This document shows positions 43,626 to 61,918 of a stretch of 64,000 nucleotides of DNA, in pieces. Where the stretch lies: positions 124,001-188,000 of the forward strand of contig NIVC01000862.1 in NCBI GenBank assembly GCA_002269645.1. The letters run 5' to 3'. Within the stretch, counting starts at the first letter, position 1, and each line of letters opens with the position of its first letter. The translations under genes were made by a program, and so were the position numbers. Under the pieces are notes generated by a model. That model made no database searches, was not told the origin of the DNA, and was given only the letters and a program-made list of their open reading frames with translations. Source of the DNA: Macrostomum lignano (lineage: Eukaryota).

Positions 43626-43737
43626 AGTAGTATGGGATAACAGAACTCTGCCGCAGGAATTTCCGTGGAAAAGCCATGGGCCCTAGTGAGTGAACATACG
43701 GCCCTATGTAAATCCATTGAGCGACTCTGCCGCAGGG
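43626..43737 (+). repeat. Polinton left terminal inverted repeat
   Basis: AGTAGTATGGGATAACAGAACTCTGCCGCAGG...GCCGCAGGG is the exact reverse complement of 59281-59392 and 59487-59598. Imperfect similarity continues ~20 bp further in. Confidence 0.95.
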
Positions 43738-43866
43738 AAAGCCACGGAAATTCCATGGGGGGCACATCGGGTGGGCATGGGGGTCCGGTGAGATAACAAA
43801 GCGCATGCTGGTATATGTACTGAAGGAAACTCATTATTGCACCCACCCCACTCCGCCTAGAAAGTA

Positions 43867-43874
43867 TATATAAG
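43867..43874 (+). promoter_or_regulatory. TATA box (TATATAAG) upstream of the PC4-like gene
   Basis: Canonical TATAWAW-type sequence ~75 bp upstream of ATG 43949. Confidence 0.55.
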
Positions 43875-43948
43875 ATGGGCGATTTTTTGAGGTTGGCTTC
43901 ATGACGAAAGGAATTTTTGTGCATCTTTCTTAAAGAAGCATCTCATTA

Positions 43949-44671
43949 ATGGATCTCTGTGACGGCTTCAAAGTTCAAGTGCAAGAGTACGAAGGTCATC
44001 GCTTTATTGCAATCCGACGTTTCTTCTCCTCTGAAAGCGGGCTCAGAGCGGGCATCCCTGGCTTTAACCTCAATGCGTACCAATGGGAGAAGTTGAAGCA
44101 GCTGAAACGCCAGCTTGTGCACTCGGCAGTCAATCGGCACAGCGTCACAGTCAAGCTTGGCTTTGATAAACTCGTTGTGGTCAGCAGGGGCATCATCTGG
44201 CTGAAGCGTCTGCCGGAAGACTGTACAGAGGATTATCTGCGGCGGAACTCAGTGGCGCTGACTCCCCGTCTATGGGGAGAACTCTGGAAGAAGGCCGAGT
44301 GGATCGACAACGAGCTGCGAGAGAAGTCGGCGGAGAGTGAGTATCAGCTGGAGGCCGAGGACATCAAGCATGAGGGCCAAGAAGCACAGCTGGTCAGCGA
44401 AGAAGAAGAGGAGAAGAGGCTGCGCATCGTCGAGTCGGACAATGCAACCAGCTCGCCTGTTCTGCCAGAGACTTCAGTCGGGCGCATACCCCAGCAAGAC
44501 AGCGACCTGTCGCACGACCCACTGTGGTACCGGTTCCGTGCTGCTTCAGGGCTCGGCAACAGCGGCTGTCACAAACGAAAGCTTCCGTGGCCCCTGCGCA
44601 GGCAAAATGCAATCAAGTTGCCCAAAGTGATCAATGGTGGAGAGGATGGTGACGCAGAAAAAAGTGCTTGA
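43949..44671 (+). CDS. PC4/Sub1-like ssDNA-binding protein (two PC4-like repeats + acidic tail)
   Basis: FKVQVQEYEGHRFIAIRRFF..GLRAGIPGFNLNAYQWEKLK fits the PC4 pattern V.V.EF.G...IDIR.Y....G.KGISL...QW..L. A weaker second unit is KLGFDKLVVV..IIWLKR..NSVALTPRLWGEL. Confidence 0.75.
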   Translation: MDLCDGFKVQVQEYEGHRFIAIRRFFSSESGLRAGIPGFNLNAYQWEKLKQLKRQLVHSAVNRHSVTVKLGFDKLVVVSRGIIWLKRLPEDCTEDYLRRNSVALTPRLWGELWKKAEWIDNELREKSAESEYQLEAEDIKHEGQEAQLVSEEEEEKRLRIVESDNATSSPVLPETSVGRIPQQDSDLSHDPLWYRFRAASGLGNSGCHKRKLPWPLRRQNAIKLPKVINGGEDGDAEKSA

Positions 44672-44898
44672 TAAACTTTTTAAGTGACTATGCGTGGACA
44701 TTGCTATGCCATCTGTACGAGTATTGATGTCTAACAGTTCTATTTATCCAGCTTTTTCAGCTTATTCATTAATGTCCTATTAAATGAGCTCGTTTAAAAT
44801 TAAAAATAAAATAAAATAAGCATCTCTCTCTATAATTATGCTAGTTTACTGGTAAACTTAAGAATGCGAAATGAGTTTAATTTTTTCTCTAATTGAAA

Positions 44899-45966
44899 AT
44901 GGAAAAGATTTACTTTAACCCTGAGCAGCCAGCAAGCTTTTCTGGCTGCAATAAATTTATTAATGAAGTTCGCACGCAGGGTATCCGAGTGAGTGAAAAA
45001 GCTGCGAAAAACTGGCTTAACGATCAGACAGTCTACACATTACATAAGCCAGCAAGGAGGAATTATCCGAGGGCCCCAATCATAGTTCGAAGTATTGATG
45101 ACCAATGGGAGTTGGATCTGGTGGAGATGATTCCTTTTTCCAAGTATAATAACGGCTACAGGTATATTCTAACATGCATTGATGTGCTGTCCAAGTACGG
45201 ATGGGCGAGGGCATTAAAGAACAAGTCTTCTATTGAAGTGAAGTCGGCATTCGAGAGCATATTAAGAAGTTCAAAGCGGCAACCGCGCACTGTTCGCACT
45301 GATCAAGGGAAAGAGTTTATCAACTCTACTTTTCGCCAATGCTGTATGGAAAGGGGAATCCTGGCATTCCCAACCAACAGTGAGCAGAAGGCGGCTGTCA
45401 TTGAACGATGGAACCGAACTTTAAAGAGCAAAATGTGGCGCTACTTCACCCACAACAGCACTCTGCATTGGCTTGATGTGCTGGCTAAGCTAGTGAAGTC
45501 CTACAACAAAACTTACCACAGAAGCATACGAATGGCACCAACGAATGTCAGCCAGGAGAACGAGTCCGAGGTCTGGATGAGCCTATATGACGGGAAAGCG
45601 ATTGAAACTGTGGAAAAGCTGGGAAAGCCAAAGTTCAGCGAAAACCAGTCTGTGCGGATTTCCAATGCACCCAGGCTTTTTAGAAAAGGGTACAAGGCCA
45701 ACTGGAGCGAAGAAGTGTACACGGTGGTGTCCAGAGCTCCAAAGCATTATCCCTACATGTACAAGATAAAAGACATGGAAGGAGAAGAGATTCGTGGGCT
45801 TTTTCACGAGCATGAACTGCAGGCCGTTCCGGAGTCGCAGCGGCTGTATGTGATTGAGAAGATTCTGAAGACTGAGAAGCGGAGGCGTAAGATCCGATAT
45901 CTGGTCAAGTGGGCCGGCTACGACTTCACTGACTGGGTGGATGAGAAGGACTTAAGAAAAGTGTAA
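44899..45966 (+). CDS. Retroviral-like (rve) integrase with C-terminal chromodomain
   Basis: IYFNPEQPASFSG N-terminus; catalytic WELDLVEM, RTDQGKEF and VIERWNRTLK; chromodomain YVIEKILK..YLVKWAGY..DW. Frame intact. Confidence 0.95.
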   Translation: MEKIYFNPEQPASFSGCNKFINEVRTQGIRVSEKAAKNWLNDQTVYTLHKPARRNYPRAPIIVRSIDDQWELDLVEMIPFSKYNNGYRYILTCIDVLSKYGWARALKNKSSIEVKSAFESILRSSKRQPRTVRTDQGKEFINSTFRQCCMERGILAFPTNSEQKAAVIERWNRTLKSKMWRYFTHNSTLHWLDVLAKLVKSYNKTYHRSIRMAPTNVSQENESEVWMSLYDGKAIETVEKLGKPKFSENQSVRISNAPRLFRKGYKANWSEEVYTVVSRAPKHYPYMYKIKDMEGEEIRGLFHEHELQAVPESQRLYVIEKILKTEKRRRKIRYLVKWAGYDFTDWVDEKDLRKV

Positions 45967-45978
45967 GATGCCGACATT

Positions 45979-46806
45979 GTGCAGCCATTCCCAATTATGA
46001 GAAGCATCATCATTAACAGCGAAAATGCTGAAGGTACTCCTACTGACTTTCATTTTCACCTGCCTTCACCTATTTACTTGGATCGAAATGTGGACTATGA
46101 GGCAGGTCTGGCTGAAATCCATCTGCCTGCTGCATGGTTCAATGTTGACGAGCCTTACTGCTTCACTGTCTCAGATGGAAGAGAGCATGAGGCCTTGGTT
46201 CTTCAACCCGGACGCTTTGCTAGAGTGGAGGAGTTGGTGGAGCGCATGAATGAACTGCTGGCCAACTCTGAGTCACTGTTCTTCGATGCAATGAGCGAGA
46301 GGGAGTCTGAAATGGAGGCTGATGAGTCTGGTTTAATGGGGCGGAGCAGCGCTAGAGATATTGGCATAAAGTTTGAGATCCAAGAATTGAGAACGGTAGT
46401 GCTCAACAACACGGCTCGAGCAGAATTATTCCTTCCATCAAGTAAAATTCTGCAGTGGCTGGGATTCGGAAATCAGTCCGTGAAAATTCCACCTGGGCGC
46501 CAAGTTTCCATGTACCACATTGGCTGCCCGCCCACCAATCTGATCAACGTGCATTGTAGCATTGTGGAGTCAACTAATTGCAACTGGAATTCCCTGCTGC
46601 GAACTGTGAACATGAATCCTGAAGCCGGATGGGGAAGCTACTGGAGCAAAGTGTTTAAGAAAACAGTTTTCTTCCCCATTCAGAAAACAAATTTTCTACA
46701 CAGCATTCGAGTTCAACTGCGAGACATCTTTGGCTTCTCACTGACTGCTCATAGCGGCAGCCCTGTTCTGCTCACAATTCTGATACGTGAGAGACCAATG
46801 CAATGA
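45979..46806 (+). CDS. Minor capsid protein (penton-like single jelly-roll)
   Basis: DFHFHLPSPIYL..YEAGLAEIHLPAAWFNV and C-terminal INVHCSIVE..LLRTV..IRVQLRDIFG resemble Polinton minor capsid proteins. Position in the gene cluster fits. First ATG is at 45997. Confidence 0.75.
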   Translation: MQPFPIMRSIIINSENAEGTPTDFHFHLPSPIYLDRNVDYEAGLAEIHLPAAWFNVDEPYCFTVSDGREHEALVLQPGRFARVEELVERMNELLANSESLFFDAMSERESEMEADESGLMGRSSARDIGIKFEIQELRTVVLNNTARAELFLPSSKILQWLGFGNQSVKIPPGRQVSMYHIGCPPTNLINVHCSIVESTNCNWNSLLRTVNMNPEAGWGSYWSKVFKKTVFFPIQKTNFLHSIRVQLRDIFGFSLTAHSGSPVLLTILIRERPMQ

Positions 46807-47219
46807 ACTATCAGCAGCTGATTCGGCAGTATTCAGGGACTCGGACGGGAAATGAAAAGTCCATGCTCTATGGCTGCGGGAGTTTTCCTGGAATAATGAC
46901 TTACCAGCCTCCTCCAGCACCTTCCATAACATCATCATCATCATTAGCATCAAAGCCTGTACAAACCAGCAGTAGCAGCAGAAGCAATAGTACGAGTAAT
47001 AGAAACATAGGAAATCAAGCACAGGCTAAAAAGGTGAATAAGAAGCAGGTGCGCATGAAGAAGAAGAAAAAAAGTGGCGAAGCACGCAAAACAAGCAAGG
47101 TCAGAACAAGCAAGCAACCTAAGAAAAGAACGACTAAAACACAGACCAAGAAAACAGGCAAAAGAAACCAAAAAGTGGGCAAAGAAACTGTGAAGCGTGT
47201 TCTGGACTCACTCTCATAG
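46803..47219 (+). CDS. Small basic, Lys-rich putative core (DNA-condensing) protein
   Basis: Lies immediately upstream of MCP. K/R-rich C-terminal half. LYGCG fits the adenain cleavage consensus (M/L/I)xGx/G. ATGA overlap with the upstream stop. Confidence 0.55.
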   Translation: MNYQQLIRQYSGTRTGNEKSMLYGCGSFPGIMTYQPPPAPSITSSSSLASKPVQTSSSSRSNSTSNRNIGNQAQAKKVNKKQVRMKKKKKSGEARKTSKVRTSKQPKKRTTKTQTKKTGKRNQKVGKETVKRVLDSLS

Positions 47220-47221
47220 CA

Positions 47222-48504
47222 ATGGCTTACGGATTCAACCCGAGACTCGATTTGTTCAAGTCCCCCGTGCTGCAGACTGCTATTGAAAAATCCACGTATG
47301 TTGATATTCACCCCGTGAACTCTATTACTACTAACTCACCTATTGAATTCGACTGCCATCCATCGGCTGATGAGTACACTGATCTGCTGAGCTCATTCCT
47401 GTATATTCGCTGTCGCCTAGTCCGGCTTGGCGGGGCTTTGATGAGGGAGGAGGTTCGGAATGCCGATGGAGTTGTCACTGAGCGCAGAGACAGTGGGGTG
47501 CACCCAGAAAACTTTGTCCTGTCTACGGCATTCTCAGATGTAATCGTGAGCATCAACCAGCGCATTGTCTCAGGTGGAGACCAGCTCTACCCCTACCATG
47601 CCTACCTAAAAGCTCTCATGAGCTCATCCGATGCTCAGCAGTTAAATTTCTACCCCGCCGGATTCCTGGAACCCGAAACTGCTGCTGAGGGGCATGCCGA
47701 GAGACACAGGGAGTCCCGCTGGGTGGAGTATGCGGGACCGCTGCTCAGCGACATCTTCCAGTGTCCTGTTCTGCTGCTGAACAATTTACACCTGCACATC
47801 AAGCTGATGCCCAGTGATGCTGCATTCGCCATTCGAACCCCAGATGAGAACAACACAGCCTACCGAATGGAAATCTCCCACTGCATTCTGAACCTGCGCC
47901 GAGTCAAAGTGGCGCCTCACATCAGCCTAGCGCATGAGCAGGGACTTACCAATCAGAACGCACTTTACCCCATCGAGCGAACCGAAATGCAAAACTTCAT
48001 TCTACCCCAGGGAATTCAGTCAAAAAACATTGAAGGATTCACCCATGGCAAACTGCCGAAGTTCGTTATGCTGGTCTTCGTGAACCACCGAGCCTTCAAT
48101 GGCCATCACCATTCCAGCCCCTTCGAGTTCCAGAGCTTCAACCTCAGCCAGCTAGCACTAAAGAAAGGTGGTGAAGCCATGTGCCACGCTGCATTTGCAC
48201 CTGAGAATAATTCATTCGTGAGAGAGTACTTGCACTACCTGAAAAGCTGTCAGTCTGCCAGCCCTACCAACTCGGTTCCGTGGGTCCCCTACCAGTTGTT
48301 CTCCAACGGCAACACAGCTTTCGCATTCGATCTCACGCCTGAGGGAGCGGCCCTGTGGTACGGACAGAAGGAGGGAATTTGCGGCTGGAGATTCGCTTCC
48401 GACAGGCCCTGGAGGAGCCTGTATCTCTGATTGTTATGTGCCTGTATGACTCACTGATTGAGGTCACGAAGCACAGGGAGATTCTGCTAGATTTTCCATC
48501 CTAG
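47222..48504 (+). CDS. Major capsid protein (double jelly-roll); one frameshift near 48372
   Basis: LDLFKSPVLQTAIEKSTYVDIHP..PIEF..DEYTDL and FEFQSFNLSQL are Maverick MCP motifs. The shifted frame gives the expected C-terminus GNLRLEIRF..LIVMCLYDSLIEV..REILLDF*. Confidence 0.9.
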
Positions 48505-48527
48505 GAGTACGCTGGCGCAACGCTAAT

Positions 48528-49040
48528 ATGGATGCTTTTCAACTGCTTAAACTGGCTAAAAGCTTTTTGCCACAAAATAACTATTTAATTATTGTCTTGA
48601 ATTCAATAAATAAAACATCTTATGCTTTAAACTTTATTCAGCGAGCAACTCTCAAAAGAAATTTATCTCGATGTAAGTTTATTTTCTTTCTGCTTCAGTA
48701 CGGCTCGTCCTTTGGTCACTGGGTGGTTTGTTATGCCAATAAGGAGAATTCCATAGAACTCTTTAACTCTCTGGGCTGGGACTCAAGCACTTTAGAGATC
48801 ATTCACAGAGCACTGAAATCCTTTTGGTATTCTCCATTCTACTTACGTAGCAATGTGAATCGAATTCAGAGCTGCAACTCTGCTAAATGCGGTTTGTTCT
48901 GTCTCTTGTTTGCCTATCAAAAGTTTCGTTTCAAGCGCTCGTTTGAGTGGGTTCTGCGGCACCTCCATGCAAATCAGCAGAGCCACTTGAATGAAAGAAT
49001 TCTGCAAAGGTTTGAGAGTTGCTTAAGAAAAAAAATTTAA
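48528..49040 (+). CDS. Adenain-like cysteine protease
   Basis: GHWVVCY (His), IELFNSLG, and RIQSCNSAKCGLFC (Gln, Cys). Confidence 0.85.
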   Translation: MDAFQLLKLAKSFLPQNNYLIIVLNSINKTSYALNFIQRATLKRNLSRCKFIFFLLQYGSSFGHWVVCYANKENSIELFNSLGWDSSTLEIIHRALKSFWYSPFYLRSNVNRIQSCNSAKCGLFCLLFAYQKFRFKRSFEWVLRHLHANQQSHLNERILQRFESCLRKKI

Positions 49041-49077
49041 TTAGACTTTTAAAATCAAGGATTTAGCTCAACAGGCG

Positions 49078-49729
49078 ATGGAAACACGTGAGCGGATAAA
49101 CTGTTATGATGTGCGCCTGCGACAGGAAGCTGCATGATTGTCAGCGGGCCTACAAATGCAGGAAAGACAACCTTCGTGAAACATCTGATACAATACAAGG
49201 ATGTCATGTTTGATGTGAAGCCTGGGAGAGTTCTGTGGTACTACGGAATTTCACAAGCAGCACACTCTGAGCTCAGCAGTCTCGGCGTGCACTGCAGCAG
49301 GGATTTCCCAGCAGTATCGAGACCGCACTGAGACCCAATGACCTGGTTGTATTTGATGACCTGATTGAAGAAACTTCCAATTCTGCTGCAATGCGAAATG
49401 TTTTCACTGGAATTGCCCATCATTTGCCCTGCTTTCTGGTTATGCTGACCCAAAATGTATTTTTTAAAGGGAAGGAGTTGCGAACAATGAGTCTGAATGC
49501 GATGTACTTTGTGATCATGAAGAACCCCAGAGACCAGCTGCAGATTGCGGCGCTGGGCAGGCAGTGTTTTGCTGAGAAGCCCGGCTTTCTGCTGTCAGTG
49601 TTCAAGCACGTGACATCGCACGGCAGGGGAGCCTACCTGCTCCTGGATTTTCACCCTTCCACCCCTGATGAGCTGCGGGTCCGGGCTCGAATCCTGCCCA
49701 ATCAGCGACCCCACCTGGTTTACACTTAA
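49078..49729 (+). CDS. A32/FtsK-like packaging ATPase; two apparent 1-nt deletions (~49125, ~49290)
   Basis: Walker A GPTNAGKT; Walker B LVVFDDL in the next frame; HH..LVMLTQNVF..RTMSLNAMYFVIMKNPRD..YLLLDFHP. Confidence 0.9.
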
Positions 49730-49776
49730 GAATAACAGCCGAGATTTTGCCATTTGCTCTATATTCTGCAACACTA

Positions 49777-50094
49777 ATGATAATGGAAACATTCGACTCA
49801 CATGAAAGTTTGTTTGATGTTCTCGCCTCACCGAAATATTCCATCAGCTTTAAACGTCTGTTGATCAGAGCGGGTCCAAAAGCAGTACATGAATTTCTCA
49901 TTGAGGCCTGCTATAACCTATTGCAAAACACTCTGTCGTTCTCACTCACTGAAAAGGCAGCGCTAGTGAAGCAAAAGCAAATAATCCGCAAAATTTCTAC
50001 ACATAGAAGAGCTGCGGATCTGCTAAATACGGGTTTTATCAAAATTCTCTACATTCTAATAAAGCTAGTGAAGAAAAAGAAACAAAATGAATAA
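49777..50094 (+). CDS. Conserved small Polinton protein (PW-like), function unknown
   Basis: LLIRAGPKAVHEFLIEACYNLL..EKAALVKQKQIIRKIS resembles the recurrent Maverick pattern I..CICECALN.L.G...L...K..LR.LA. Confidence 0.55.
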   Translation: MIMETFDSHESLFDVLASPKYSISFKRLLIRAGPKAVHEFLIEACYNLLQNTLSFSLTEKAALVKQKQIIRKISTHRRAADLLNTGFIKILYILIKLVKKKKQNE

Positions 50095-50779
50095 GTTCTC
50101 AGAAATGGTTCTGATCCCCAAGTCAGAATACGACATGCTCACACAGAATTTGAAGCCAGTTGAGTCTGAACTCGACACTGCTGTGAGATATGCGCAGAGG
50201 AAATGCAATGATATTTTGCTTGCCGAGGATTGCCCAGACGATGTGAAAGCTGCCATGTACCATGATGCGATGAAGAGTTTGCTGGCCAAGCGCAAGCGGA
50301 CTGGAAAGGATGATGCGGTACCTGCGAGTGATGCAAAGATGCTGAAAACTGATATTGCACCAAGCAGCTGGGGGGAAAAGATCACCCAATCCGTGCCGCA
50401 GAAGTTTAAAGCGAGAGCCCGCAGTCTATGGGCCATCCTATCTGGCAATCCTTCTCTGATTCGGGTGTCCGAAAATGGCGAGGCGCAAATTTGTGGGAAG
50501 ACAATACCCTCCTCAAACATCCTGGATTTGTTTCACAGTGCCGTGAGGGATTCGAAATGTGCCAGCGAGCCGGTGGGCTGGAGTGAGTTTGTCTCATTGC
50601 TCCAAGATAAAAAGCTTAACATCCCAGCTTCGGCCATAGGAAAGTCAGTTAGGCAGCTAATTTCTAAACCTGCTGTTTCTCCAGAGGCCGCCCCTGCTCA
50701 TCATACAGTTAAAGGATTCGGGAGTGGGAGAGCTTGGCTACAGCTGAACAGGAAAAAACTATTTAAGAAGGGGAACTGA
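50087..50779 (+). CDS. Uncharacterised Polinton protein (230 aa)
   Basis: Intact ORF overlapping the upstream stop. MVLIP, SNILDL, P.GW..F..LL...NIP..AIG resemble a family recurrent in Mavericks. Confidence 0.6.
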   Translation: MNKFSEMVLIPKSEYDMLTQNLKPVESELDTAVRYAQRKCNDILLAEDCPDDVKAAMYHDAMKSLLAKRKRTGKDDAVPASDAKMLKTDIAPSSWGEKITQSVPQKFKARARSLWAILSGNPSLIRVSENGEAQICGKTIPSSNILDLFHSAVRDSKCASEPVGWSEFVSLLQDKKLNIPASAIGKSVRQLISKPAVSPEAAPAHHTVKGFGSGRAWLQLNRKKLFKKGN

Positions 50780-50819
50780 GTCGGCTTCCCGATATCAGGC
50801 ATCTTGAAACCATCCGATC

Positions 50820-51314
50820 ATGAACTATATTGACTTCCAAGGCTTCCCACGCGAGAGATCGAGCAGAGATTTCGTTGTGAAGGAGCTAGCCATTGCCCAA
50901 GTCCGGGCAGGCAGTTACCATATCACTCATCACGTGTACGCCTCTCCGTTCTCATGGGAGCGAATCTCACCTGAGATGCAGGTGCATTACAGAAAGCTCT
51001 CAAAGAATTTGCATCATTTCAAGTGGACAGATGGATCCCGATCGTACATGCATTTGGCAAATGACATTCTAAACATTGCTTACGGCCCCACCTGGACAAG
51101 CGGGGTGAAAAAGTCCATCTTTCTGACTGAGCTGCTTGGCAGACAGGTGTACAACCTAGAGGATCTGGGATCACCTTTGATTCAAGCATCTGATACTGGT
51201 TGTGCAGTGAAAAATGTATTGCTCTACTACAACTGGCTGAAGCCAAAGTTCTGTATCAACTTAAGAAGCGAGTGTGCCCGCACACTCAAAGGCTCTCAAA
51301 GACAGCACCACTGA
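50820..51314 (+). CDS. DnaQ/DEDD-exonuclease-like small protein
   Basis: YIDFQGF..FVVKELAI..HHFKWTDG..Y..NLEDLG..CAVKNV pattern. The fold assignment is inference. Confidence 0.5.
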   Translation: MNYIDFQGFPRERSSRDFVVKELAIAQVRAGSYHITHHVYASPFSWERISPEMQVHYRKLSKNLHHFKWTDGSRSYMHLANDILNIAYGPTWTSGVKKSIFLTELLGRQVYNLEDLGSPLIQASDTGCAVKNVLLYYNWLKPKFCINLRSECARTLKGSQRQHH

Positions 51315-51331
51315 CAGAAAGGACTCTCTAA

Positions 51332-51895
51332 ATGAGTACACCTGCGACAGCCCTGCGAGTGACCAATCTGGTTGGCGGCGTGGATCTGAGGCTGGCTGGA
51401 GGCAGGGGTGCCCAGTTGCCTCTGCGGGAACTGGCTCTCAGCATGGCTCATGTCATCTATCGCCCGTCTGGCCCCGAGTGCTCATCAAGAGGATGCGGAA
51501 TCCCAGAGTGACTCTATTGCTCTATCCGACTGGACAACTGAGTATCTGTGGCGCCCGGAGCTACTCGGCCTCAGTCAGGCTGCCCGTCGCTTCGTGGCTA
51601 TGCTGCATCGCAGAGTTCCGCCTCAACTGCTGCCTCGTCAATCCGTTTGTGTCGAATTAAGACTATTACTGCTTATGGAAAAATAGACTTGCCCAAGGCT
51701 CTATCACTAAGAAACCTCTGTGAAGTGCTACCGAATGCGAAATATGAACCTGAAAGTTTTACTGCTTTAGTTTGTCAGCTTCAATACTGCAAGTGTACGC
51801 TTTTTCACAATGGCTCATTTGTGCTCAGCGGAGCAAAGTCTAAGCATATGCTACAATCAGACCGTTCCCTATTAGCTTGCTTGCTTTCAAACTGA
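51332..51895 (+). CDS. TATA-binding protein (TBP)-like gene, ~188 aa after correcting three 1-nt deletions
   Basis: Repeat 1: LRVTNLVGGVDL..LPLRELALSMAHVIYRPSGP/RVLIKRMRNPRVTLLLYPTGQLSICGARS/LSQAARRFVAML. Repeat 2: IKTITAYGKIDLPKALSLRNLCEVLPNAKYEPESFTALVCQLQYCKCTLFHNGSFVLSGAKS. Both align to the TBP core (QNIV..V.L..LDL..IA....AEYNP..F..VIMR..P..T.LIF.SGK.V.TGAKS..AARK.AR; YEPELF.GL..). Confidence 0.8.
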
Positions 51896-52453
51896 AATAA
51901 ATAAAAAGAAAGAATAAATCGCGGCTTGTTTAATTAAAATATTCAAATTAATTCTCTCTCATGCACTAGCTTTTTGTCTTCATTTTTAATTGCAATGAAA
52001 AACCAGTGGTGAACATCTTGTAGAGATAAACAAATAGCAAGCTAAAAGCAAATACGAGCAAGCAGATAAACCACTACAAAAATAGGAAAAAATAGTCCAA
52101 AAGCAGATGGAATATATTAAAACTTATAAAGCAATATCAGGATTCAAAAAACCAACCACAAAGTACAGGTAAAATTAGAAAAAAATAAAACTCTCACATG
52201 CCATCACCGCAAACACACCACCACCACTAACGAAGCATTGGTTTCATTATCATCATCGCGCAATTGTAAGTAAATATTGTGAAGCAAAAAATTGTTGCTA
52301 GCCTCAGCAGATGATCAAAGTTTTTATTGCATTTGGGAAAAATCCTATTTAGATTAGCGGTTAACCTTTATTCAATGTCAAAGAAAGAAACTTTGAAATC
52401 GCAAAGAAATTATTGTTTTTGTTTAGCAAGCTTGTTGTACTCATTATTCAATT

Positions 52454-52571
52454 TCAAAGTAGTCGGCGCCGTTTTGATGATTTCTGCTGCTGTTGCTGTT
52501 GTTGCTGTTGTTGTTGTTGTTGTTGCTGCTGTTGCTGTTGTTGCTGTTGTTGTTGTTGTTGTTGTTGTTGT

Positions 52572-52613
<42 letters not shown>

Positions 52614-55600
52614 AGCAGCCGAATGTGACCAAATGGGAGACTATAGTTAGGGCTCAGCCAAGCGCGCTTGTCTTCCCAAATGCTTAAGGCACACTTCCGC
52701 TGCTGCAAAGTGTACAGTCGGTGATGGATGCTGGCAATACGATGAACAACGACAGAATGGCTGCAGAGCTCATTGAACACCCTTAGGTAGTCACTGTGAG
52801 CCAGCTCTTTCTTAACAATGCATCCTTGAACTCCTTTGGCCTTCTTCTTTTCCGCGGCTTGGCTACTCGCCTTGAATGAGTAAAGCTTCGGCCTTAGGAG
52901 CAGCCACTCCTCAAAGCGAGCACCGGCTGCTTCATCCTTAATGCAGCCAAGTCGCGCTTTTAAATCATTCGAGAATAGCGCGTGCTCTTGAGGATAGTTT
53001 GAAGTGTCGAGCAGCTGCTTCGACTTCAACAGCGGTAGAACTTTAGACTGAACGCTCATGTTGCTGATTGAGAGAAAGAAAGAATCGGTATCACCACCGC
53101 ATAGCTTGATGACACCTCCATCGTTCTCTATCCAGGGCTTCAGTTTGTCGTAAAACAGCTCGTACATAATCATTTTCGAAAAGTCTAGGACGCATTGCCC
53201 GATAAAAATAGGCCGATCGAGCTTTAATTTTGTCTTTTGCAGTTCCAAAACGCTTAGTGAATCAGTAATTATGATAAAATTGGTAATTGTCGGCTTGGCA
53301 AGCAGTACCTTTACCTTTTCCACGTTGGTGCAGACTCGAATATCACGCCGCTTTCGCACATTCTCCATAGTTTTGCCGAATAGCGCGTTATTCTTTAACT
53401 TGTAGAAATCCTTTTCGAAGTTGGTTTTCGCTGCAGCCCGCTTCTGGCTATTTTTCTCGACGTAGGCAGCAAAGAGAGGCTCTTGGTGAAACTCAATCAT
53501 GCGATTGATGCGTCTAACCCGCATTCCATGGTTCAGGTAGAACGCCAAAATAGAGGAATGAACCACATAGGAAGGCTTATCGTGACAAGTGAGCATCAGC
53601 TTCTCTGTCGGATGATAGGTGGAGTTCTCCGTACCGACCTTTTCCCACAGCTGCTGCATGTATTCAGGAAATTCCCTGAAATTCGGGGCAGCCTTTTCCG
53701 GTGCAAATGGCAGGTCTTCGGTGGTTTCGTGAATCTCTGGGGGATACTCAAGGTCAACATCAAAGAGGTAGGCGAGTGGATCGGTTAGCTTGAGTCCTCG
53801 AATGCGATCTTCAGTCCACAAAAGCAGCTCATCATCGTCCAGCCAACGGAATCCTCCGACTGGTAAGTTCATAGTGAGCGCCTGTCCATACAGGTTGTTT
53901 GCATCCACAGCAAGAAGCTCGGTGAGGCCAGCATGAATAGTAGGAGTGCCACCATCAACATCCTCATTGCTGTCAACACCAGTGCTGGCGCCCGCTGCTG
54001 AGGTAGCCTGCACTTTGTGGATGTTAACAAACGACATGCCGCCGCGAATGCCGCGCTCAAACAGCGAATACATCTGCGCATCTGTTAGCAGTTCAATCCC
54101 TGACTTGATGGATTTCAATGCCGAAGCGAATGATAGGCCTGGTGTCGAAATAAAATGGACTGGATCAAGGCCATCCTCTTGCATGCTGATCTTGCGAAAA
54201 TTTTCAAAAATATCAGCCAACTGCCTGATGTCGAGCTCGAGGTAGCACAGCATGTACTCTTTTAGATTTGAAACCTGAAATTCTCGCCAGGCGCGTTGAG
54301 CATGCTCATAGTCAGAGTTGGTGCAGTGGCTCTTAGTCAGAGCATTGTAGAAGCTCTCTTGGCTGGGAAGCACGGCATCCTTCAGCACGTCTGAATTTTT
54401 AAGATAGTCATACGGGAAAACTCCCTTGCTGAAAAGCACTTCGGATGATAGCAGTGGGAATCTGCTGCGTAGGCGACTAGTGATACGACATTCAGCCTCT
54501 GGTAAATTTTTGATGAGCTGTGAGAGGCTGGCATTAAGAAATTGATTCGAATCAATGAACTGAATAGTAAAATTTAGGCTTGATCTTGCCCTCACTCTCA
54601 TACTCGCCGATTTTAAATTCGATTTTCATCGACAGAAACTGCTCTGGATTCAGAGGGATGACGGAGATTTTCCAACCCTCCATCAGACCCAAAGCGGATG
54701 ACATCATGAGATGGAGATCGTACCCCTTGAAATTGTGGAACACGACGGGAAGGAAAGACCTCTTTAGTCTGGCCTTCATATTACAATCAGCACACGCAGC
54801 TCCCCGAAATTCTCCGCTGAGGTGGTCGTGATCCCAATGTTTATTGGACCCTTCCGTGAATTCGCTTCCACAATAGCAGCAAGCTGTGGCTTCTCTGAAC
54901 TGTCGCCCTGCCATCTCTGTTCTTATCGCTGCTTGTCGACTGAACTCCGTGTTCCAGCCGTAAACTTCACGAGCGAGCTTCTCCAGCGATTGCAGGAAAT
55001 CGGAAATGCACTTATTAGGATCGTCGCTGACAAAAGTGCTCACTTTATCATCCGCTCCTCTGGGCGCTAGACCAGTCATCCCTTCTCTGTGCAGCACGAT
55101 GTAGCCAGCAGCAACAGCAATGTGCTCAGTTAACTTCTTCGTTGCTATACCAGCAATCGAATCTTCTTGGCATGGAGCATTCAATGCTTCGAAGTCGGCG
55201 TAAACAACAAATGGCGGACTAATTGTTTTTTCCCATGATGAGAATCGGAGAATATTATTCCTTTCATCCGGCAACTCTTCCTTTACGTTGATCACTCCAG
55301 GTTGACAAGGAGCTCGCTGTGTTCTTCAAAGGCTGCATCACTATGAAAGGGCAGCAAGCAGCGCTCACACCACTTCCGCCGATGCAGAGCTGCCTTGCTA
55401 TTAAGAAGCCTGTTGATGCTTGAAACAGCACACCAATGACCCGAGGCCTCGTCTTCTGATGGTGGAATAAATAAGAGTAGAACAACTTCTCGATCTTTAA
55501 TTGTAGCTGCAGTAGGCAAGCGGAGGACTTGAGCGCTCTCTTTCTCCCAGATGAAAACCGTGAAGCAAAGTCTCGGGTTCAGTCTCTCAACAATGGAAAG

Positions 55601-56763
55601 GTCAGTGACATTGATTGGCAAGTCAATTCCACTCATGTTAAGTTCATCCAGCCAGTCAGTGTAGGAAGACTCGCGTTGCGCTGATTTCTTTATTTTGTTG
55701 TCTTCCTTGTGCAGAAAAGCAAGGCATGCGTAAAGAAAGCAATTTACACCATTGCTTGGAGGACAAATAACCGCCTTCTTCCGAAGAAGTGGAGTCGGTA
55801 GAATAAATTCCGCAGCATGCCCGTGTAGTAGGAAACTCGTTCGACGAGAGCTGAGTAAAGTTCAAAAAAATTAATTTTTTCAATTATCCAGCCACTACCG
55901 TTGGTGTTGTAGACATCGACTTTGCGCTCCAGCTCTGTAAACTGCTGTCTCCACCAATCATCAAACTCCTGTATATCTACCATCAATCCGAGTTGTGTGC
56001 TCATCCATTTATCCTCCCCCTTGACAGCTTCTGACGCCTGCACTCTGACCATGTGCAAATTCAGTTTGATCTGAGCTTTAACAGAGCAATTATCCGAAGA
56101 GTCGAAGCGAATTTCAAGACACTGCTGCACTGCGATTTTGCAGAAATCGAGAAACTCGAATGTTTCAGTGGCAGCTCCAGGTGTAAATCGATGAACTTGA
56201 AGAACATCTTCGTGAGCGCTGGTTTTTAACGCCAGGGTGAATGAAGGTCCTACAATTGAAGAAGGGAAGATAGTATTAAAATATTTATGGAAAGTGGAAA
56301 TGATGAGAAATGTCTCTGGGAGTTATGGAAGTCGAATATTTTATTGCCCTTTTTACACTTACGAGTATACTATTTATCCTACTACCTTATATCTAGATTT
56401 AATATTTTTTTATTAATCAATACGAGCTACGTATAAGTGTAAAAAAAGAATTTGAAGAGTTATTATTGAAGAAATAGATGGAGTTCTGCTTTCGCATTTT
56501 TGTCAATTCATCTAATGAGGAATAAAAATGTCTCATTATTGTGAGTTCTCCGGCTTAATCCTGTTGGGAACCATTTGGGAGTTGTTGTGTAGGCGAGAAA
56601 AATAAAATATATAATTCCGTTGCTAAGAGACAGGAATGCAACAAACAGAAATGCATGAGTTCATAAAACCAGCAATGGAATGAAAAAACTCACCACTCGG
56701 TCCAAATTCGTGGCTGACAGCTGGGTCCACCGGCTCGTCCTCTTGACTCGATGAGGTGGCCAT
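52454..56763 (-). CDS. Protein-primed DNA polymerase B (pPolB), ~1290 aa, probably spliced; three small deletions in this copy
   Basis: Motifs: VVYADFEA (ExoI), EndoVII-like CCYC..DHDHLSGEFRGAAC..CN, VVFHNFKGYDLH, KGVFPYDY, AVDANNLYGQAL, KLKNNALFGKT, GGDTDSFF, KKKAKGV. Exon 1 is 56694-56763 and exon 2 runs 56249 to 52454. The deletions at ~54577 (2 nt), ~55317 and ~55827 are absent from the duplicate copy. Confidence 0.93.
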
Positions 56764-57466
56764 TGCAGAGGATTAATATTAGAAATAGAGCGACATTCAG
56801 TGAAGAACTCAATGCTGCTGAAATTCCAGTGTAAAAGTGTTGTTTGATAAATTTAACCCAAGAGCAATTCTGTCAGAGATGTAGTGGAGTGATAAATTTC
56901 CAGCATTCAGAGCTCTATGGAGCAGAAATTGAATCTAACCAAAGTCATGCTTGACTAACCAAATTCATGTCATTCTAAACATTGGGTATCATAGATAATC
57001 AATCCCATATTATACTCATAGAGTTGAGTAGATGCTGTGAACCTAACGGTAATTCTATAAGCCAGTGAACTTATAACTTCTTCGAAGATATTCATGTTTG
57101 AAAAAAAACAAGTAATGAATTCAACAAAGTCCAAGAAAGTGCAAAAGCTTTCATTAAAAGCAACCATCAATCCATTATATTTCTGGTAAAGCATTTCCCA
57201 ATGCAAAAAATCATGCTCGTTAGTCACCCTACTAATTAAAGCTGCTTATTAAAGCTTTATTATAAGAATAAGTTTGAATAGTAAGCCTAAATGATTTTCT
57301 TTTTCACTTTGCTTAGGATATTAATGAGAAACCTGTATGAGCACGATGAGGTGCAACGTAATTACGCTCGTAGTTAATATTTATGCAGGGTAGAATGCAT
57401 TGGTTTTCGGCTAAAAATATACAAATCTCGTTTCCCCTACTTTTAAATACTTTGAACTGGGACACT

Positions 57467-58453
57467 TTAAGAGCTACTTAAGCGAATGCGAGTTCCTCCC
57501 CCAAGGTCAATAAAATACTCGCCCTCGACTCTGCTCGGTAGTACCAGCTGAATGCAGAGTGACGGTGGCATCGGTGGCATGGCTGCTACGACTGGGATGT
57601 CACCGGTTTGGATTTCTGGTGCAGCCGGTGGAGTAGGAGGTTCGAATTCTCGCAGGAGATCGGTTAGGCTTGCTTCTGCCATCATTCTGGCTTGCTCCAT
57701 TTTTTTTCCTGCGACTGGAACAGGCCTGTAGGGTGGCATCTGTTGCTGCTCAGCTTCTTCATTTGCCATCTCAACAGGCTCCAACTCGATATCCTGGAAG
57801 AAGGCAGTATCCAACTCCGAAGGAGCTGCAAAACCAGTGGAATCGTCAGCCGGGTGGCCGGCATCAGCAGTTGGAAGCCCGGCACCGTCAGCGGGGAGGC
57901 CGGCATCAGCAGTTGGAAGGCCGGCACCGTCAGCGGGGAGGCCGGCATCAGTAGTTGGAAGGCCGGCACCGTCAGCTGGGAGGCCGGCATCAGTAGTTGG
58001 AAGGCCGGCACCGGTTGAACCAAAAAAATCTGATTGCTGCTCCACAGCGGCAAGTGCAGCAGCAAGCAGATCAAAGTTTGCGTCGGTAGCGTGCTGAAAA
58101 TCTTCATCAGGCTGCTGAAAGACGCCCTGAATTGTCTGGCTGAGTGCGCTGACCGGTGCTCGACTGCGCTCGATAATGTTGAGCTGCTCTTGACGCTGGG
58201 CAGCCTCCAAGGCAGCAAAGCGGGCTCGTTTTAAATCTCCAGGTGAGCTCCAGTTAATAATAATGTGGTTTTTGTGAGCTCGAACTTGCTGGCGCACATT
58301 AAAGAGCTCACGCGTCTGGCACTCGTGGCAAAGCAGCCAGCGACTGACATTGCAGCTGCTTTTCATTTTGTGACGTTTTAAGCCACCGAGCTCACATGAG
58401 TTGCAGGAAATGCATACCTCGTACACATATGAAGGGCAGCGCGATTTATTCAT
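57467..58453 (-). CDS. Uncharacterised 328-aa protein: Cys/His-rich N-terminus, four 14-aa repeats, acidic/Pro-rich C-terminal half
   Basis: Intact ATG-to-stop ORF, identical in the duplicate copy, with a TATA box upstream. Confidence 0.65.
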   Translation of the reverse strand: MNKSRCPSYVYEVCISCNSCELGGLKRHKMKSSCNVSRWLLCHECQTRELFNVRQQVRAHKNHIIINWSSPGDLKRARFAALEAAQRQEQLNIIERSRAPVSALSQTIQGVFQQPDEDFQHATDANFDLLAAALAAVEQQSDFFGSTGAGLPTTDAGLPADGAGLPTTDAGLPADGAGLPTADAGLPADGAGLPTADAGHPADDSTGFAAPSELDTAFFQDIELEPVEMANEEAEQQQMPPYRPVPVAGKKMEQARMMAEASLTDLLREFEPPTPPAAPEIQTGDIPVVAAMPPMPPSLCIQLVLPSRVEGEYFIDLGGGTRIRLSSS

Positions 58454-58547
58454 TCCAAATTTTTAAATGTTTGAATAGAAAAATCAAATTGAAGTTAAAT
58501 TCAAATTAGAAGTAGAAACTTATGTCCCGTATTCAAGTATACGGTGT

Positions 58548-58555
58548 CTTATATA
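58548..58555 (-). promoter_or_regulatory. TATA box (TATATAAG) upstream of the 328-aa gene
   Basis: Same 8-mer as at 43867, ~95 bp upstream of ATG 58453. Confidence 0.55.
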
Positions 58556-58593
58556 CCTCGCTTATTCGAATCTGCGTTAATAAAAACATAGCC

Positions 58594-58640
58594 GCTATGT
58601 TTACAGCTTAGCTATGTTTACAGCTTAGCTATGTTTACAG
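58594..58640. repeat. 17-bp triplet GCTATGTTTACAGCTTA containing TGTTTAC
   Basis: Read directly: two full copies and one partial. Confidence 0.85.
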
Positions 58641-58893
58641 TCAGTAACCCAGCCGTCTCAGAAACCGGGTTTTTTAAAATAATTTTATTAGAAAACCCAG
58701 GTACAGAGCCTCTATTGAAAGCATACATGTACAAAAGTTCCTTTGCACTTGCCGCCAACTGGAACTCCCGACCAGACTGGGGAGCAATAAAACTGATAAC
58801 TATTGAGCGTCCAATTCCATTTAGCAACACACCCACCACCCCAAGAAAGGGGGAGATGCTTGGCTATTATAATCTTATTAAAGCAGCATCTTG

Positions 58894-58936
58894 TTATTGA
58901 AACTTTTGCCTAATTAATAGGCAAAAGTTTCAATAA
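58894..58936. other. Perfect 19-bp inverted repeat with 5-nt loop (hairpin/cruciform)
   Basis: TTATTGAAACTTTTGCCTA-ATTAA-TAGGCAAAAGTTTCAATAA. Confidence 0.85.
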
Positions 58937-59280
58937 ATTCCAAAATTCCAAAATCCTTAAATTCCAAAATCAAGTGATTTTTTCAACAGTTGGTAGCTCA
59001 AATTTTAGACATGAATTGCAAATTGATTTTATTGTAATCATTGAAATAAAGACACGCCCCTCCTCCTTTTACGATACCCGATTGAATATTAAATGTCATT
59101 CAGAAGCAAAGCATTGCCTGGTTTTATGAACCGAACCGCCTGTGTCCGTCGTAGCAGAACACACATTTGCCAATACTCATTCATTGCGGTTAACGGAATT
59201 CCCGCGGAGCCCCACCCCATTCGCAAATACTTTCACCAATGTACTCTCACTAGGAGGTCTCACGGAATTTCCATGGCCTG

Positions 59281-59392
59281 CCCTGCGGCAGAGTCGCTCA
59301 ATGGATTTACATAGGGCCGTATGTTCACTCACTAGGGCCCATGGCTTTTCCACGGAAATTCCTGCGGCAGAGTTCTGTTATCCCATACTACT
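59281..59392 (-). repeat. Polinton right terminal inverted repeat
   Basis: Reverse complement of 43626-43737; ends ...CCCATACTACT. Confidence 0.95.
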
Positions 59393-59404
59393 ACTGTTAT
59401 CCCA

Positions 59405-59598
59405 TTCCCGCGGAGCCCCACCCCATTCGCAAATACTTTCACCAATGTACTCTCACTAGGAGGTCTCACGGAATTTCCATGGCCTGCCCTGCGGCAGAGT
59501 CGCTCAATGGATTTACATAGGGCCGTATGTTCACTCACTAGGGCCCATGGCTTTTCCACGGAAATTCCTGCGGCAGAGTTCTGTTATCCCATACTACT
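59405..59598 (-). repeat. Tandem duplicate of the right end (59199-59392) including a second full TIR (59487-59598)
   Basis: Direct repeat at a 206-bp offset with 12-nt filler ACTGTTATCCCA. Confidence 0.9.
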
Positions 59599-59599
59599 T

Positions 59600-61918
59600 C
59601 TACAGTGGGAATCTGCTGCGTAGGCGACTAGTGATACGACATTCAGCCTCTGGTAAATTTTTGATGAGCTGTGAGAGGCTGGCATTAAGAAATTGATTCG
59701 AATCAATGAACTGAATAGTAAAATTTAGGGGCTTGATCTTGCCCTCACTCTCATACTCGCCGATTTTAAATTCGATTTTCATCGACAGAAACTGCTCTGG
59801 ATTCAGAGGGATGACGGAGATTTTCCAACCCTCCATCAGACCCAAAGCGGATGACATCATGAGATGGAGATCGTACCCCTTGAAATTGTGGAACACGACG
59901 GGAAGGAAAGACCTCTTTAGTCTGGCCTTCATATTACAATCAGCACACGCAGCTCCCCGAAATTCTCCACTGAGGTGGTCGTGATCCCAATGTTTATTGG
60001 ACCCTTCCGTGAATTCGCTTCCACAATAGCAGCAAGCTGTGGCTTCTCTGAACTGTCGCCCTGCTATCTCAGTTCTTATCGCTGCTTGTCGACTGAACTC
60101 CGTGTTCCAGCCGTAAACTTCACGAGCGAGCTTCTCCAGCGATTGCAGGAAATCGGAAATGCACTTATTAGGATCGTCGCTGACAAAAGTGCTCACTTTA
60201 TCATCCGCTCCTCTGGGCGCTAGACCAGTCATCCCTTCTCTGTGCAGCACGATGTAGCCAGCAGCAACAGCAATGTGCTCAGTTAACTTCTTCGTTGCTA
60301 TACCAGCAATCGAATCTTCTTGGCATGGAGCATTCAATGCTTCGAAGTCGGCGTAAACAACAAATGGCGGACTAATTGTTTTTTCCCATGATGAGAATCG
60401 GAGAATATTATTCCTTTCATCCGGCAACTCTTCCTTTACGTTGATCACTCCAGGTTGACAAGGAGCTCGCCTGTGTTCTTCAAAGGCTGCATCACTATGA
60501 AAGGGCAGCAAGCAGCGCTCACACCACTTCCGCCGATGCAGAGCTGCCTTGCTATTAAGAAGCCTGTTGATGCTTGAAACAGCACACCAATGACCCGAGG
60601 CCTCGTCTTCTGATGGTGGAATAAATAAGAGTAGAACAACTTCTCGATCTTTAATTGTAGCTGCAGTAGGCAAGCGGAGGACTTGAGCGCTCTCTTTCTC
60701 CCAGATGAAAACCGTGAAGCAAAGTCTCGGGTTCAGTCTCTCAACAATGGAAAGGTCAGTGACATTGATTGGCAAGTCAATTCCACTCATGTTAAGTTCA
60801 TCCAGCCAGTCAGTGTAGGAAGACTCGCGTTGCGCTGATTTCTTTATTTTGTTGTCTTCCTTGTGCAGAAAAGCAAGGCATGCGTAAAGAAAGCAATTTA
60901 CACCATTGCTTGGAGGACAAATAACCGCCTTCTTCCGAAGAAGTGGAGTCGGTAGAATAAATTCCGCAGCATGCCCGGTGTAGTAGGAAACTCGTTCGAC
61001 GAGAGCTGAGTAAAGTTCAAAAAAATTAATTTTTTCAATTATCCAGCCACTACCGTTGGTGTTGTAGACATCGACTTTGCGCTCCAGCTCTGTAAACTGC
61101 TGTCTCCACCAATCATCAAACTCCTGTATATCTACCATCAATCCGAGTTGTGTGCTCATCCATTTATCCTCCCCCTTGACAGCTTCTGACGCCTGCACTC
61201 TGACCATGTGCAAATTCAGTTTGATCTGAGCTTTAACAGAGCAATTATCCGAAGAGTCGAAGCGAATTTCAAGACACTGCTGCACTGCGATTTTGCAGAA
61301 ATCGAGAAACTCGAATGTTTCAGTGGCAGCTCCAGGTGTAAATCGATGAACTTGAAGAACATCTTCGTGAGCGCTGGTTTTTAACGCCAGGGTGAATGAA
61401 GGTCCTACAATTGAAGAAGGGAAGATAGTATTAAAATATTTATGGAAAGTGGAAATGATGAGAAATGTCTCTGGGAGTTATGGAAGTCGAATATTTTATT
61501 GCCCTTTTTACACTTACGAGTATACTATTTATCCTACTACCTTATATCTAGATTTAATATTTTTTTATTAATCAATGCGAGCTACGTATAAGTGTAAAAA
61601 AAGAATTTGAAGAGTTATTATTGAAGAAATAGATGGAGTTCTGCTTTCGCATTTGTGTCAATTCATCTAATGAGGAATAAAAATGTCTCATTATTGTGAG
61701 TTCTCCGGCTTAATCCTGTTGGGAACCATTTGGGAGTTGTTGTGTAGGCGAGAAAAATAAAATATATAATTCCGTTGCTAAGAGACAGGAATGCAACAAA
61801 CAGAAATGCATGAGTTCATAAAACCAGCAATGGAATGAAAAAACTCACCACTCGGTCCAAATTCGTGGCTGACAGCTGGGTCCACCGGCTCGTCCTCTTG
61901 ACTCGATGAGGTGGCCAT
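59600..61918 (-). CDS. 5' half of pPolB (~624 aa), frame intact, truncated by a TAG at the duplication junction
   Basis: Exon 1 is 61849-61918, intron 61405-61848, exon 2 61404-59600. The 561-aa ORF in the track lies within exon 2. Confidence 0.8.

Follow-up and report, generated by a model that had tools for sequence, protein, structure and literature searches.

A Polinton of Macrostomum lignano encodes its own homologue of the TATA-binding protein (TBP); the gene is part of the element, as an earlier note on this DNA had supposed, and is under selection. We consider it probable that the protein is a viral late-promoter factor, which would borrow TFIIB and RNA polymerase II (Pol II) from the host. 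Coordinates below are those of the window, i.e., the whole stretch of 64,000 nucleotides that was analysed.

The element occupies 43626-59392 (15.8 kb) between 132-nt inverted repeats starting with AGTAGT. It is a Polinton, and the Polinton/Maverick hallmarks are present: terminal inverted repeats (TIRs) with AG-type ends, a target duplication, a protein-primed DNA polymerase (pPolB; PF03175, E 2e-11), an rve integrase (PF00665, E 8e-13), a capsid protein and a protease. The target duplication is perfect (6/6 bp) in the sister copy C114. A model of the capsid protein matches the capsids of iridovirus, PBCV-1, Sputnik and mavirus (Foldseek E 9e-15). The protease profile PF00770, run over the own genome and controls, gave no match in either. 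The following features have been assigned.

43626..43757, left terminal inverted repeat, AGTAGT end
43865..43874, plus strand, canonical TATA box before the PC4-like gene (9/9 copies, 72-112 nt)
43949..44671, plus strand, PC4-like gene (PF02229 E 8e-5, under the cut-off)
44857..44864, plus strand, word CTTAAGAA, 41 nt before the integrase gene
44899..45966, plus strand, rve integrase with a chromo-like end (Pfam)
45951..45958, plus strand, word CTTAAGAA, 45 nt before the penton-like gene
45997..46806, plus strand, likely minor capsid (penton) gene, from its position; without Pfam hit
46654..46661, plus strand, word TTTAAGAA, 148 nt before the small basic gene preceding the capsid gene
47222..48430, plus strand, double jelly-roll major capsid protein; 427 aa in sisters, with a break close to the end of the gene in the window copy
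48528..49040, plus strand, adenain-type protease (PF00770 over the cut-off)
49022..49029, plus strand, word CTTAAGAA, 55 nt before the ATPase gene
49078..49729, plus strand, P-loop ATPase, likely for packaging; broken here, weak Pfam hits
49725..49732, plus strand, word CTTAAGAA, about 50-57 nt before the 105-aa gene
50762..50769, plus strand, word TTTAAGAA, 57 nt upstream of the 281-aa gene; replaced by TATAAGAA or CATAAGAA in the other module type
50820..51660, plus strand, conserved Polinton gene (281-aa gene), without family; 278-283 aa when unbroken, broken here
51260..51267, plus strand, word YTTAAGAA, 71 nt before the TBP start (64-79 nt in 10/10 copies)
51332..51895, plus strand, TBP-like gene; broken in the window, 188 aa in sisters; assigned by PF00352 and the fold of a natural sister copy
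51896..51905, plus strand, AATAAA poly(A)-type signals directly 3' of the TBP stop; AATAAA behind the ORF in 8/8 copies
52454..56322, minus strand, PolB of the protein-primed type, carrying an endonuclease VII/HNH-type domain; split over several frames in the window, 1200 aa in a sister
57467..58453, minus strand, 328-aa gene, without known family; canonical TATA box at 58555, minus strand
59261..59392, right terminal inverted repeat; its 6-bp flank matches the left one at 5/6 bases

The penton label of 45997..46806 is our assumption from motif likeness. PC4 is a transcription cofactor and a single-stranded DNA-binding protein, and the PC4-like protein could have a role in replication or give help to the element TBP; its gene is also present in the lineage called 2 below, and in the window it has a canonical TATA box upstream. 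The 281-aa gene (50820-51260) matches arthropod-rich unnamed clusters (0.96) and, weakly and as a lead, Maelstrom (0.86); it opens with an acidic motif presumably resembling that of DEDD-type nucleases.

In the window, the TBP-like reading runs from an ATG at 51332 to a stop at 51893-51895 in four segments and three frames, with breaks near 51463, 51577 and 51653, and two natural, unjoined frame pieces score 24.2 and 38.0 bits with PF00352, above the cut-off of 22.9. A DNA search of the own genome with this gene gave 134 candidates, and 12 of the best 40, which were scored, were 98-100% identical. Since 23 of the 30 sister loci fetched (the best DNA matches in the own genome) have an unbroken ORF of 187-188 aa, naturally unbroken copies were used for all later work on the TBP gene. 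The description of the gene in the earlier note as hidden across three frames is therefore true of the window copy but not of the gene. Its joined reading of a core-only, two-repeat TBP-like protein of about 188 aa was correct; natural sisters of exactly 188 aa have two PF00352 lobes (E 1.3e-22). Among 68 loci in all, 39 are unbroken, 14 have a start but a broken frame, and 15 have no start. Compared with seven sisters that are identical to one another, the window gene has one substitution and three indels. Of 28 bases that the window lacks along 13 kb of the element, 23 adjoin a like base, and the same kind of breakage is found in most other genes of the window copy, mostly next to runs of like bases; the frame breaks are thus likely an assembly error. 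Four runs of assembled contigs (three presumed to be RNA), pooled over copies, cover coding and non-coding parts of the element alike, so that they are silent on expression and, being pooled, cannot settle whether the window breaks are real.

The sister-copy protein matches PF00352 in both lobes, with 79.8 bits over two stretches (cut-off 22.9). An AlphaFold2 model of a natural sister copy (9 sequences, pLDDT 82) resembles solved TBPs (Foldseek TM 0.8; VIA Z 19, rmsd 2.2, 172 aligned), and by this model the protein folds as a TBP saddle; a profile match and a structural match had been set beforehand as a check, and both were obtained. The saddle is shared with cellular and archaeal TBPs (1cdw, 1ais, 3eik; Z 18.7-19, rmsd 2.2-2.4 over about 173 residues), as are the N-lobe Asn, both C-lobe Phe and the C-lobe Glu-Pro-Glu stirrup. 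Unlike cellular TBP, to which it is about 25% identical (host TBP included), the element protein has no N-terminal extension, is encoded by a mobile element, and is altered at the N-lobe Phe positions, with Lys-Thr for Gln-Asn and Thr or Ser for Pro.

Two of the four intercalating Phe of TBP are kept (F144 and F159, both in the C-lobe), and the motifs in which they had been read in repeat 2, YEPESF and CTLF, are both present. The N-lobe Phe positions are occupied by Tyr65 and by Trp47 or Pro48, the register being ambiguous here. For repeat 1, LLLY and the asparagine of TN were read correctly in the earlier note, while its SGP is the product of a shifted frame; the putative site has Trp-Pro-Arg in 12/12 distinct unbroken proteins. 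The central Asn is kept in the N-lobe (N12), Lys-Thr stands in place of the C-lobe Gln-Asn pair, and Thr or Ser in place of the Pro that follows the first C-lobe Phe (Phe144). Because half of the intercalating Phe are kept and Lys-Thr has replaced Gln-Asn, DNA binding of the element TBP could be weak. Glu-Pro-Glu-x-Phe is invariant in 12/12 aligned proteins, and E140 and E142 stand at the TFIIB-contact positions C.L3.2 and C.L3.4, these two glutamates being given as TFIIB contacts of TBP in the available part of PMC7221094. In the alignment, an acidic pair at these positions is common to all four lineages described below. Across 7 variants of lobe 2, 35 of 81 columns are invariant, including K111, T112, T114, F144 and F159.

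The TBP-like gene is under purifying selection. For the whole gene, dN/dS was 0.14-0.45 in 45/45 pairs of ten copies, and synonymous sites of lobe 2 are near saturation between variants. Confirmed lesions in all copies with no purifying selection, which the earlier note had named as evidence against itself, are not what was found, most sisters being unbroken.

When 7-mers were ranked in each element copy without any word named beforehand, TTAAGAA came first among all 7-mers in five of six copies and second in the sixth, with 7-10 coding-strand sites per copy, compared with 0-1 on the opposite strand (expected 0.5-0.9). The form YTTAAGAA is located 38-79 nt upstream of the integrase (7/7 copies), penton-like (8/8), ATPase (8/8, after one false regex hit was dropped), 105-aa (10/10) and TBP (10/10) genes, and the word is also found 147-148 nt before the small basic gene in 8/8 copies. 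Before the 281-aa gene, the word is TTTAAGAA in one type of virion module (type A) and TATAAGAA or CATAAGAA in the other (type B); the capsid gene has the word in 0/4 copies of type A and, at 109 nt, in 4/4 of type B. The word is kept in both module types though these are about 73% alike, and five of seven window words start with C. Six of eight window sites lie 35-80 nt before a start, with 0 of 20000 random placements as good, and in a second positional count five of nine sites fall in this range, with 1 of 20000 random placements, the range having been picked after seeing the data. Two promoter classes are separate in 9/9 copies, i.e., TATA at the PC4-like gene and YTTAAGAA at the virion-side genes. 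No YTTAAGAA was found before the protease (0/9 copies) or the 230-aa gene (0/10) or in the window terminal repeats, and a TATA box before pPolB was inconsistent across copies. Longer transcripts might cover the genes with no word; the available part of PMC8629364 reports trans-splicing in Macrostomum lignano.

The two virion-module types are 96-99% alike within a type and 72-73% between types. Within a type, the TBP gene stays highly similar over its first 300 nt; where the polymerases of a pair differ, identity drops to 43-70% by +360, and pairs that share lobe 2 share the polymerase end too (98-99%). To judge from these alignments, lobe 1 travels with the virion module and lobe 2 with the polymerase module, and in-frame chimeras have been found with at least seven lobe 2 variants on two lobe 1 types. 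The tail of the 281-aa gene overlaps TBP lobe 1 in another frame. The overlap is 332 nt long in types A and B and 389 nt long in lineage 2, with probabilities of 0.024, 0.016 and 0.006 for such a frame to be open (the first two values are not independent). Conservation of lobe 1 only through stronger selection on the protein was considered and rejected, since synonymous sites are also near-identical within a module type.

The TBP gene had been presented in the earlier note as a rarity of one element, and this has to be given up: TBP-like frames are present in all four Polinton lineages sampled in this genome. Lineages 2-4 were found by searching with distant capsid and TBP relatives. Lineage 2 (two copies examined) has a TBP of 199 aa (68 bits), the favoured 7-mer ATAAGAA and the word TATAAGAA. 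In lineage 3, a TBP-like frame is found in 6/8 copies (Pfam 31.0, 26.4 and 20.9 bits in the three tested), and the word TATAAGC ranks first or second in 5/5 copies; of the two copies with no such frame, one is cut by a contig start and the other also has no polymerase arm. Lineage 4 has a weaker TBP-like frame in 3/3 copies (own-profile E 7e-7 to 1e-5; Pfam 22.6 bits in one of two tested and none in the other), and its word is TATAAATA, a canonical TATA box. The words of lineages 3 and 4 are near-canonical or canonical, and lineage words are one-stranded and almost exclusive to their own lineage. In lineages 3 and 4, the TBP frame lacks a start codon and, by its sequence, resembles a second exon. 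Only lineage 3, with a word that begins in T, retains the proline behind the C-lobe Phe; this residue is absent from lineages 1 (that of the window) and 2, with words starting with C, yet lineage 4 has a T-starting word and no proline; this pattern fits a relation between proline and first word base, in a thin way. A Polinton lineage with no TBP was sought as a control in this genome and none was found, and four lineages are too few for showing co-evolution of protein and word.

Some derivatives of these lineages were also observed. TIR-bounded lineage 4 elements of about 10 kb (L132-L137, on C296, C181 and C10) have an integrase, a capsid, an ATPase and a TBP-like frame and no pPolB match, and are possibly polymerase-less satellites controlling their own transcription. 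A multi-copy derivative of lineage 3 (L130-L131 and L148-L152, on C424, C593 and C641) retains about 130 bases of pPolB together with TBP-like, integrase and capsid frames. In one lineage 3 copy (L141:1497-2846, minus strand, C297), the TBP-like frame runs stop-free into a deoxynucleoside kinase domain (PF01712, E 2e-23), which is either a real fusion or a lost stop.

A PF00352 search of the genome, in which 150 of 330 candidates were scored, gave the host TBP and a TRF2-like gene at three places each and at least 112 further places. The three places are near-identical for each host gene (TBP on C70, C713 and C1301 of G000; TRF2-like on C350, C3090 and C3513), which suggests a partly triplicated genome or assembly. 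The TBP gene lies between the 281-aa gene and the end of pPolB in 9/10 flanks examined. Among the matches listed, 71 of 97 capsid places have a TBP 2.5-5 kb downstream, and the converse holds for 67 of 112; when 20 of the 26 capsid places with no listed TBP were checked, seven had one and the other 13 had no neighbouring gene either. The TFIIB profile PF00382 gave 15 genome matches, all at host loci, and none in the element copies or element ORFs scanned; a strongly diverged TFIIB may still be present among the unnamed ORFs.

In a profile search against 1.84 billion proteins, and in two word searches, the only close relatives were flatworm-labelled and unnamed assembly proteins, the database label of the closest being Macrostomum lignano. 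The next relatives are a few unnamed environmental proteins, P0009 near lineage 1 and P0015, P0162 and P0163 near lineage 2. Broken or mis-joined element TBP copies are listed in databases as host proteins (P0005-P0008), some of them fused to unrelated exons and one named TATA-box-binding protein. In quick trees of 63 and 73 rows, built from a random subset of 147 usable hits, lineages 1 and 2 join (support 93 and 85) apart from cellular TBPs and with unnamed divergent proteins; lineages 3 and 4 form long branches whose placement is uncertain, and grouping with host TBP was not rejected by the AU test (p 0.38). Scans of IMG/VR with the TBP alignments and the capsid gave no relative, and the capsid had no match in phage records. 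A metagenome scan gave 11 loci of 25-48% identity, and the three examined (L089, L093 and L094) are ordinary or context-poor TBPs.

In the reading that we favour, host TBP would at first read the ordinary TATA boxes of the PC4-like and 328-aa genes and, in one module type, also that of the gene just upstream of TBP. The element TBP would then build up, bind YTTAAGAA, the TATA variant of its lineage, upstream of the integrase, penton-like, ATPase and TBP genes, strengthen its own promoter and switch on the integration and virion genes, with host TFIIB and Pol II recruited through the two kept glutamates. A C at the first position of the word would be allowed by loss of the proline behind the C-lobe Phe, this proline favouring T at the first TATA position according to the available part of PMC12529657. 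Each co-resident lineage would own a TBP-word pair. A wider proposal is more tentative, and we put it at a little less than an even chance: animal Polintons would run the smallest known viral early-late programme, in which each lineage has one bare TBP that reads a private TATA variant with borrowed host TFIIB and co-resident lineages are wired apart by orthogonal TBP-word pairs, and TBP would act as a genome hinge, of which the dual-coded lobe 1 stays with the virion module and the exchangeable lobe 2 moves with the polymerase module.

The earlier note had offered a promoter factor or a decoy, and the former option has gained support from the strand- and position-specific word and the kept TFIIB glutamates, while the latter has become weaker. 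As a decoy, an unlikely role in our estimate, the protein would soak up host TFIIB or TBP regulators (NC2, Mot1, TAF1), so that host transcription is lowered or host TBP is shielded at element promoters, and the words would be read by host TBP or its TRF2-like paralogue. Conservation is indeed greater at the TFIIB glutamates than on the DNA face, the host has a TRF2-like gene as well as TBP, and the lineage 4 word is a canonical TATA box. Structure titles also indicate that some single TATA variants are bound by host TBP; as crystal structures of wild-type TBP exist with the T(-30) and G(-26) variants of the TATA box (1qna and 1qn5, entry titles), host TBP may read TTTAAGAA, and it may read some of the lineage words. 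However, soaking up host factors gives no reason for private, nearly lineage-exclusive words, DNA-facing strands are among the invariant lobe 2 columns (35/81, 7 variants), and five of seven window words start with C. The word continuum TATAAGAA, TTTAAGAA and CTTAAGAA at the same promoter across module types would rather suit an unspecific booster, a TFIID-independent spare TBP serving all element promoters where host TBP is scarce, for which the word differences would be drift within each lineage. The location of the TBP gene behind a word that its product must read is also compatible with it, but the separation of TATA and YTTAAGAA promoter classes in 9/9 copies and the fixed, lineage-wide changes of the DNA face argue against such a booster, and we regard it as improbable.

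Inheritance of lobe 2 with the polymerase module could also point outside transcription, to a saddle reassigned to terminal-repeat binding or to DNA bending for replication or packaging, and TBP-like lobes do have other nucleic-acid roles in bacteria (PMC7221094, available part). This is very improbable, because the TFIIB glutamates are kept, YTTAAGAA is absent from the window terminal repeats, and lineage 4 keeps its TBP-like frame with no polymerase match between its inverted repeats. We give hardly any credence to a dead passenger, i.e., a recently captured and decaying copy of host TBP. The broken window copy, the 14 of 68 loci with a start but a broken frame and the AU result (p 0.38) would be expected of one; it is largely refuted by dN/dS well under 1, and the identity of about 25% to host TBP, the fixed position in 9/10 flanks and the relatives among environmental proteins are further points against it.

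The late-promoter factor has a functional analogue in the TBP-like proteins (vTBPs) of beta- and gammaherpesviruses. In the available part of PMC12529657, KSHV ORF24 reads a late word TATTWAA, and a viral TBP fold with an altered DNA face would be common to both systems, as would, by analogy, a private late TATA variant, ordinary early TATA boxes and the use of host Pol II. ORF24 is described there as having no TFIIB acidic residues, an N-terminal domain that binds Pol II and a need for five partner proteins, whereas the element TBP, unlike ORF24/UL87, is a bare 188-aa core with the acidic pair kept, and has neither a Pol II-binding N-terminal domain nor an extended C-terminal DNA-binding domain. 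The element TBP is no member of the herpesvirus vTBP system, and on balance we expect it to act in the manner of a herpesvirus late TBP mimic while using host TFIIB. TBPs of large DNA viruses are likewise virus-encoded and two-lobed, and such proteins are among the fold matches. According to the available part of PMC7221094, conservation of the TFIIB glutamate among viral TBPs is only about 40%, and nearly every genome with a viral TBP also encodes a viral TFIIB; in contrast, the acidic pair is kept in four lineages here and no TFIIB match is found in the elements.

With Polintons/Mavericks/adintoviruses and MELD elements, as described in the accessible text of PMC8502044 and 10.1101/2023.08.22.554363, the present elements share TIRs, target duplication, pPolB with an HNH-type insertion, rve integrase, protease, ATPase and double jelly-roll capsid. 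TBP is outside the core genes listed for Polintons in the accessible text of PMC8502044 (preprint 10.1101/697771), where promoter words are not described; a gene label "TBP" in the legend of its Fig. 5, undiscussed in the main text, is the sole direct trace of a Polinton/Maverick TBP in the literature searched, supplements and most subscription papers being outside the search. Such genes may be present in the supplement gene maps of PMC8502044 and the viral lists of PMC7221094. TBP, TATA and transcription all go unmentioned in the main texts of 10.1101/2023.08.22.554363, PMC11161782 and 10.64898/2026.10.13.758929. In Polisuviricotina, virion and polymerase modules re-assort (10.64898/2026.10.13.758929, accessible text), whereas the join described here is inside the TBP gene, between the lobes, and gives in-frame chimeras; no description of a join between TBP lobes was found in the accessible part of the literature searched. 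What is newly added here is the set of four TBP-word pairs in a single genome, together with the module join between the lobes.

With a defined factor and an 8-base word, the way in which Polintons express their capsid and integration genes becomes directly testable in vitro and by start-site mapping. A TBP of their own likely lets these small elements turn on capsid-side genes via the host polymerase, and factor and word together provide a signature by which elements with self-sufficient transcription could be recognised in sequence data. For studies of altered TBP specificity, natural TBPs in which the DNA face has been re-cut and the word matched to it would be a convenient set, and they might also yield orthogonal promoter tools. 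In databases, element TBP genes are mislabelled as host "TATA-box-binding protein".

The surroundings of the element in the window have their own repeats. Right behind the right TIR, at 59404-64000, the TIR region is duplicated in tandem over 206 nt, and 54452-58845 recurs as a copy of 99.8% identity that has the N-terminal 625 aa of pPolB in one frame; this is either a nested partial duplication or an assembly artefact. Two 42-nt tandem arrays, at 1-5714 (136 copies) and 35361-39537 (99.5 copies), result in long spurious ORFs, and matches to Phage_CI_repr at 36567-39662 are due to the second of these arrays.
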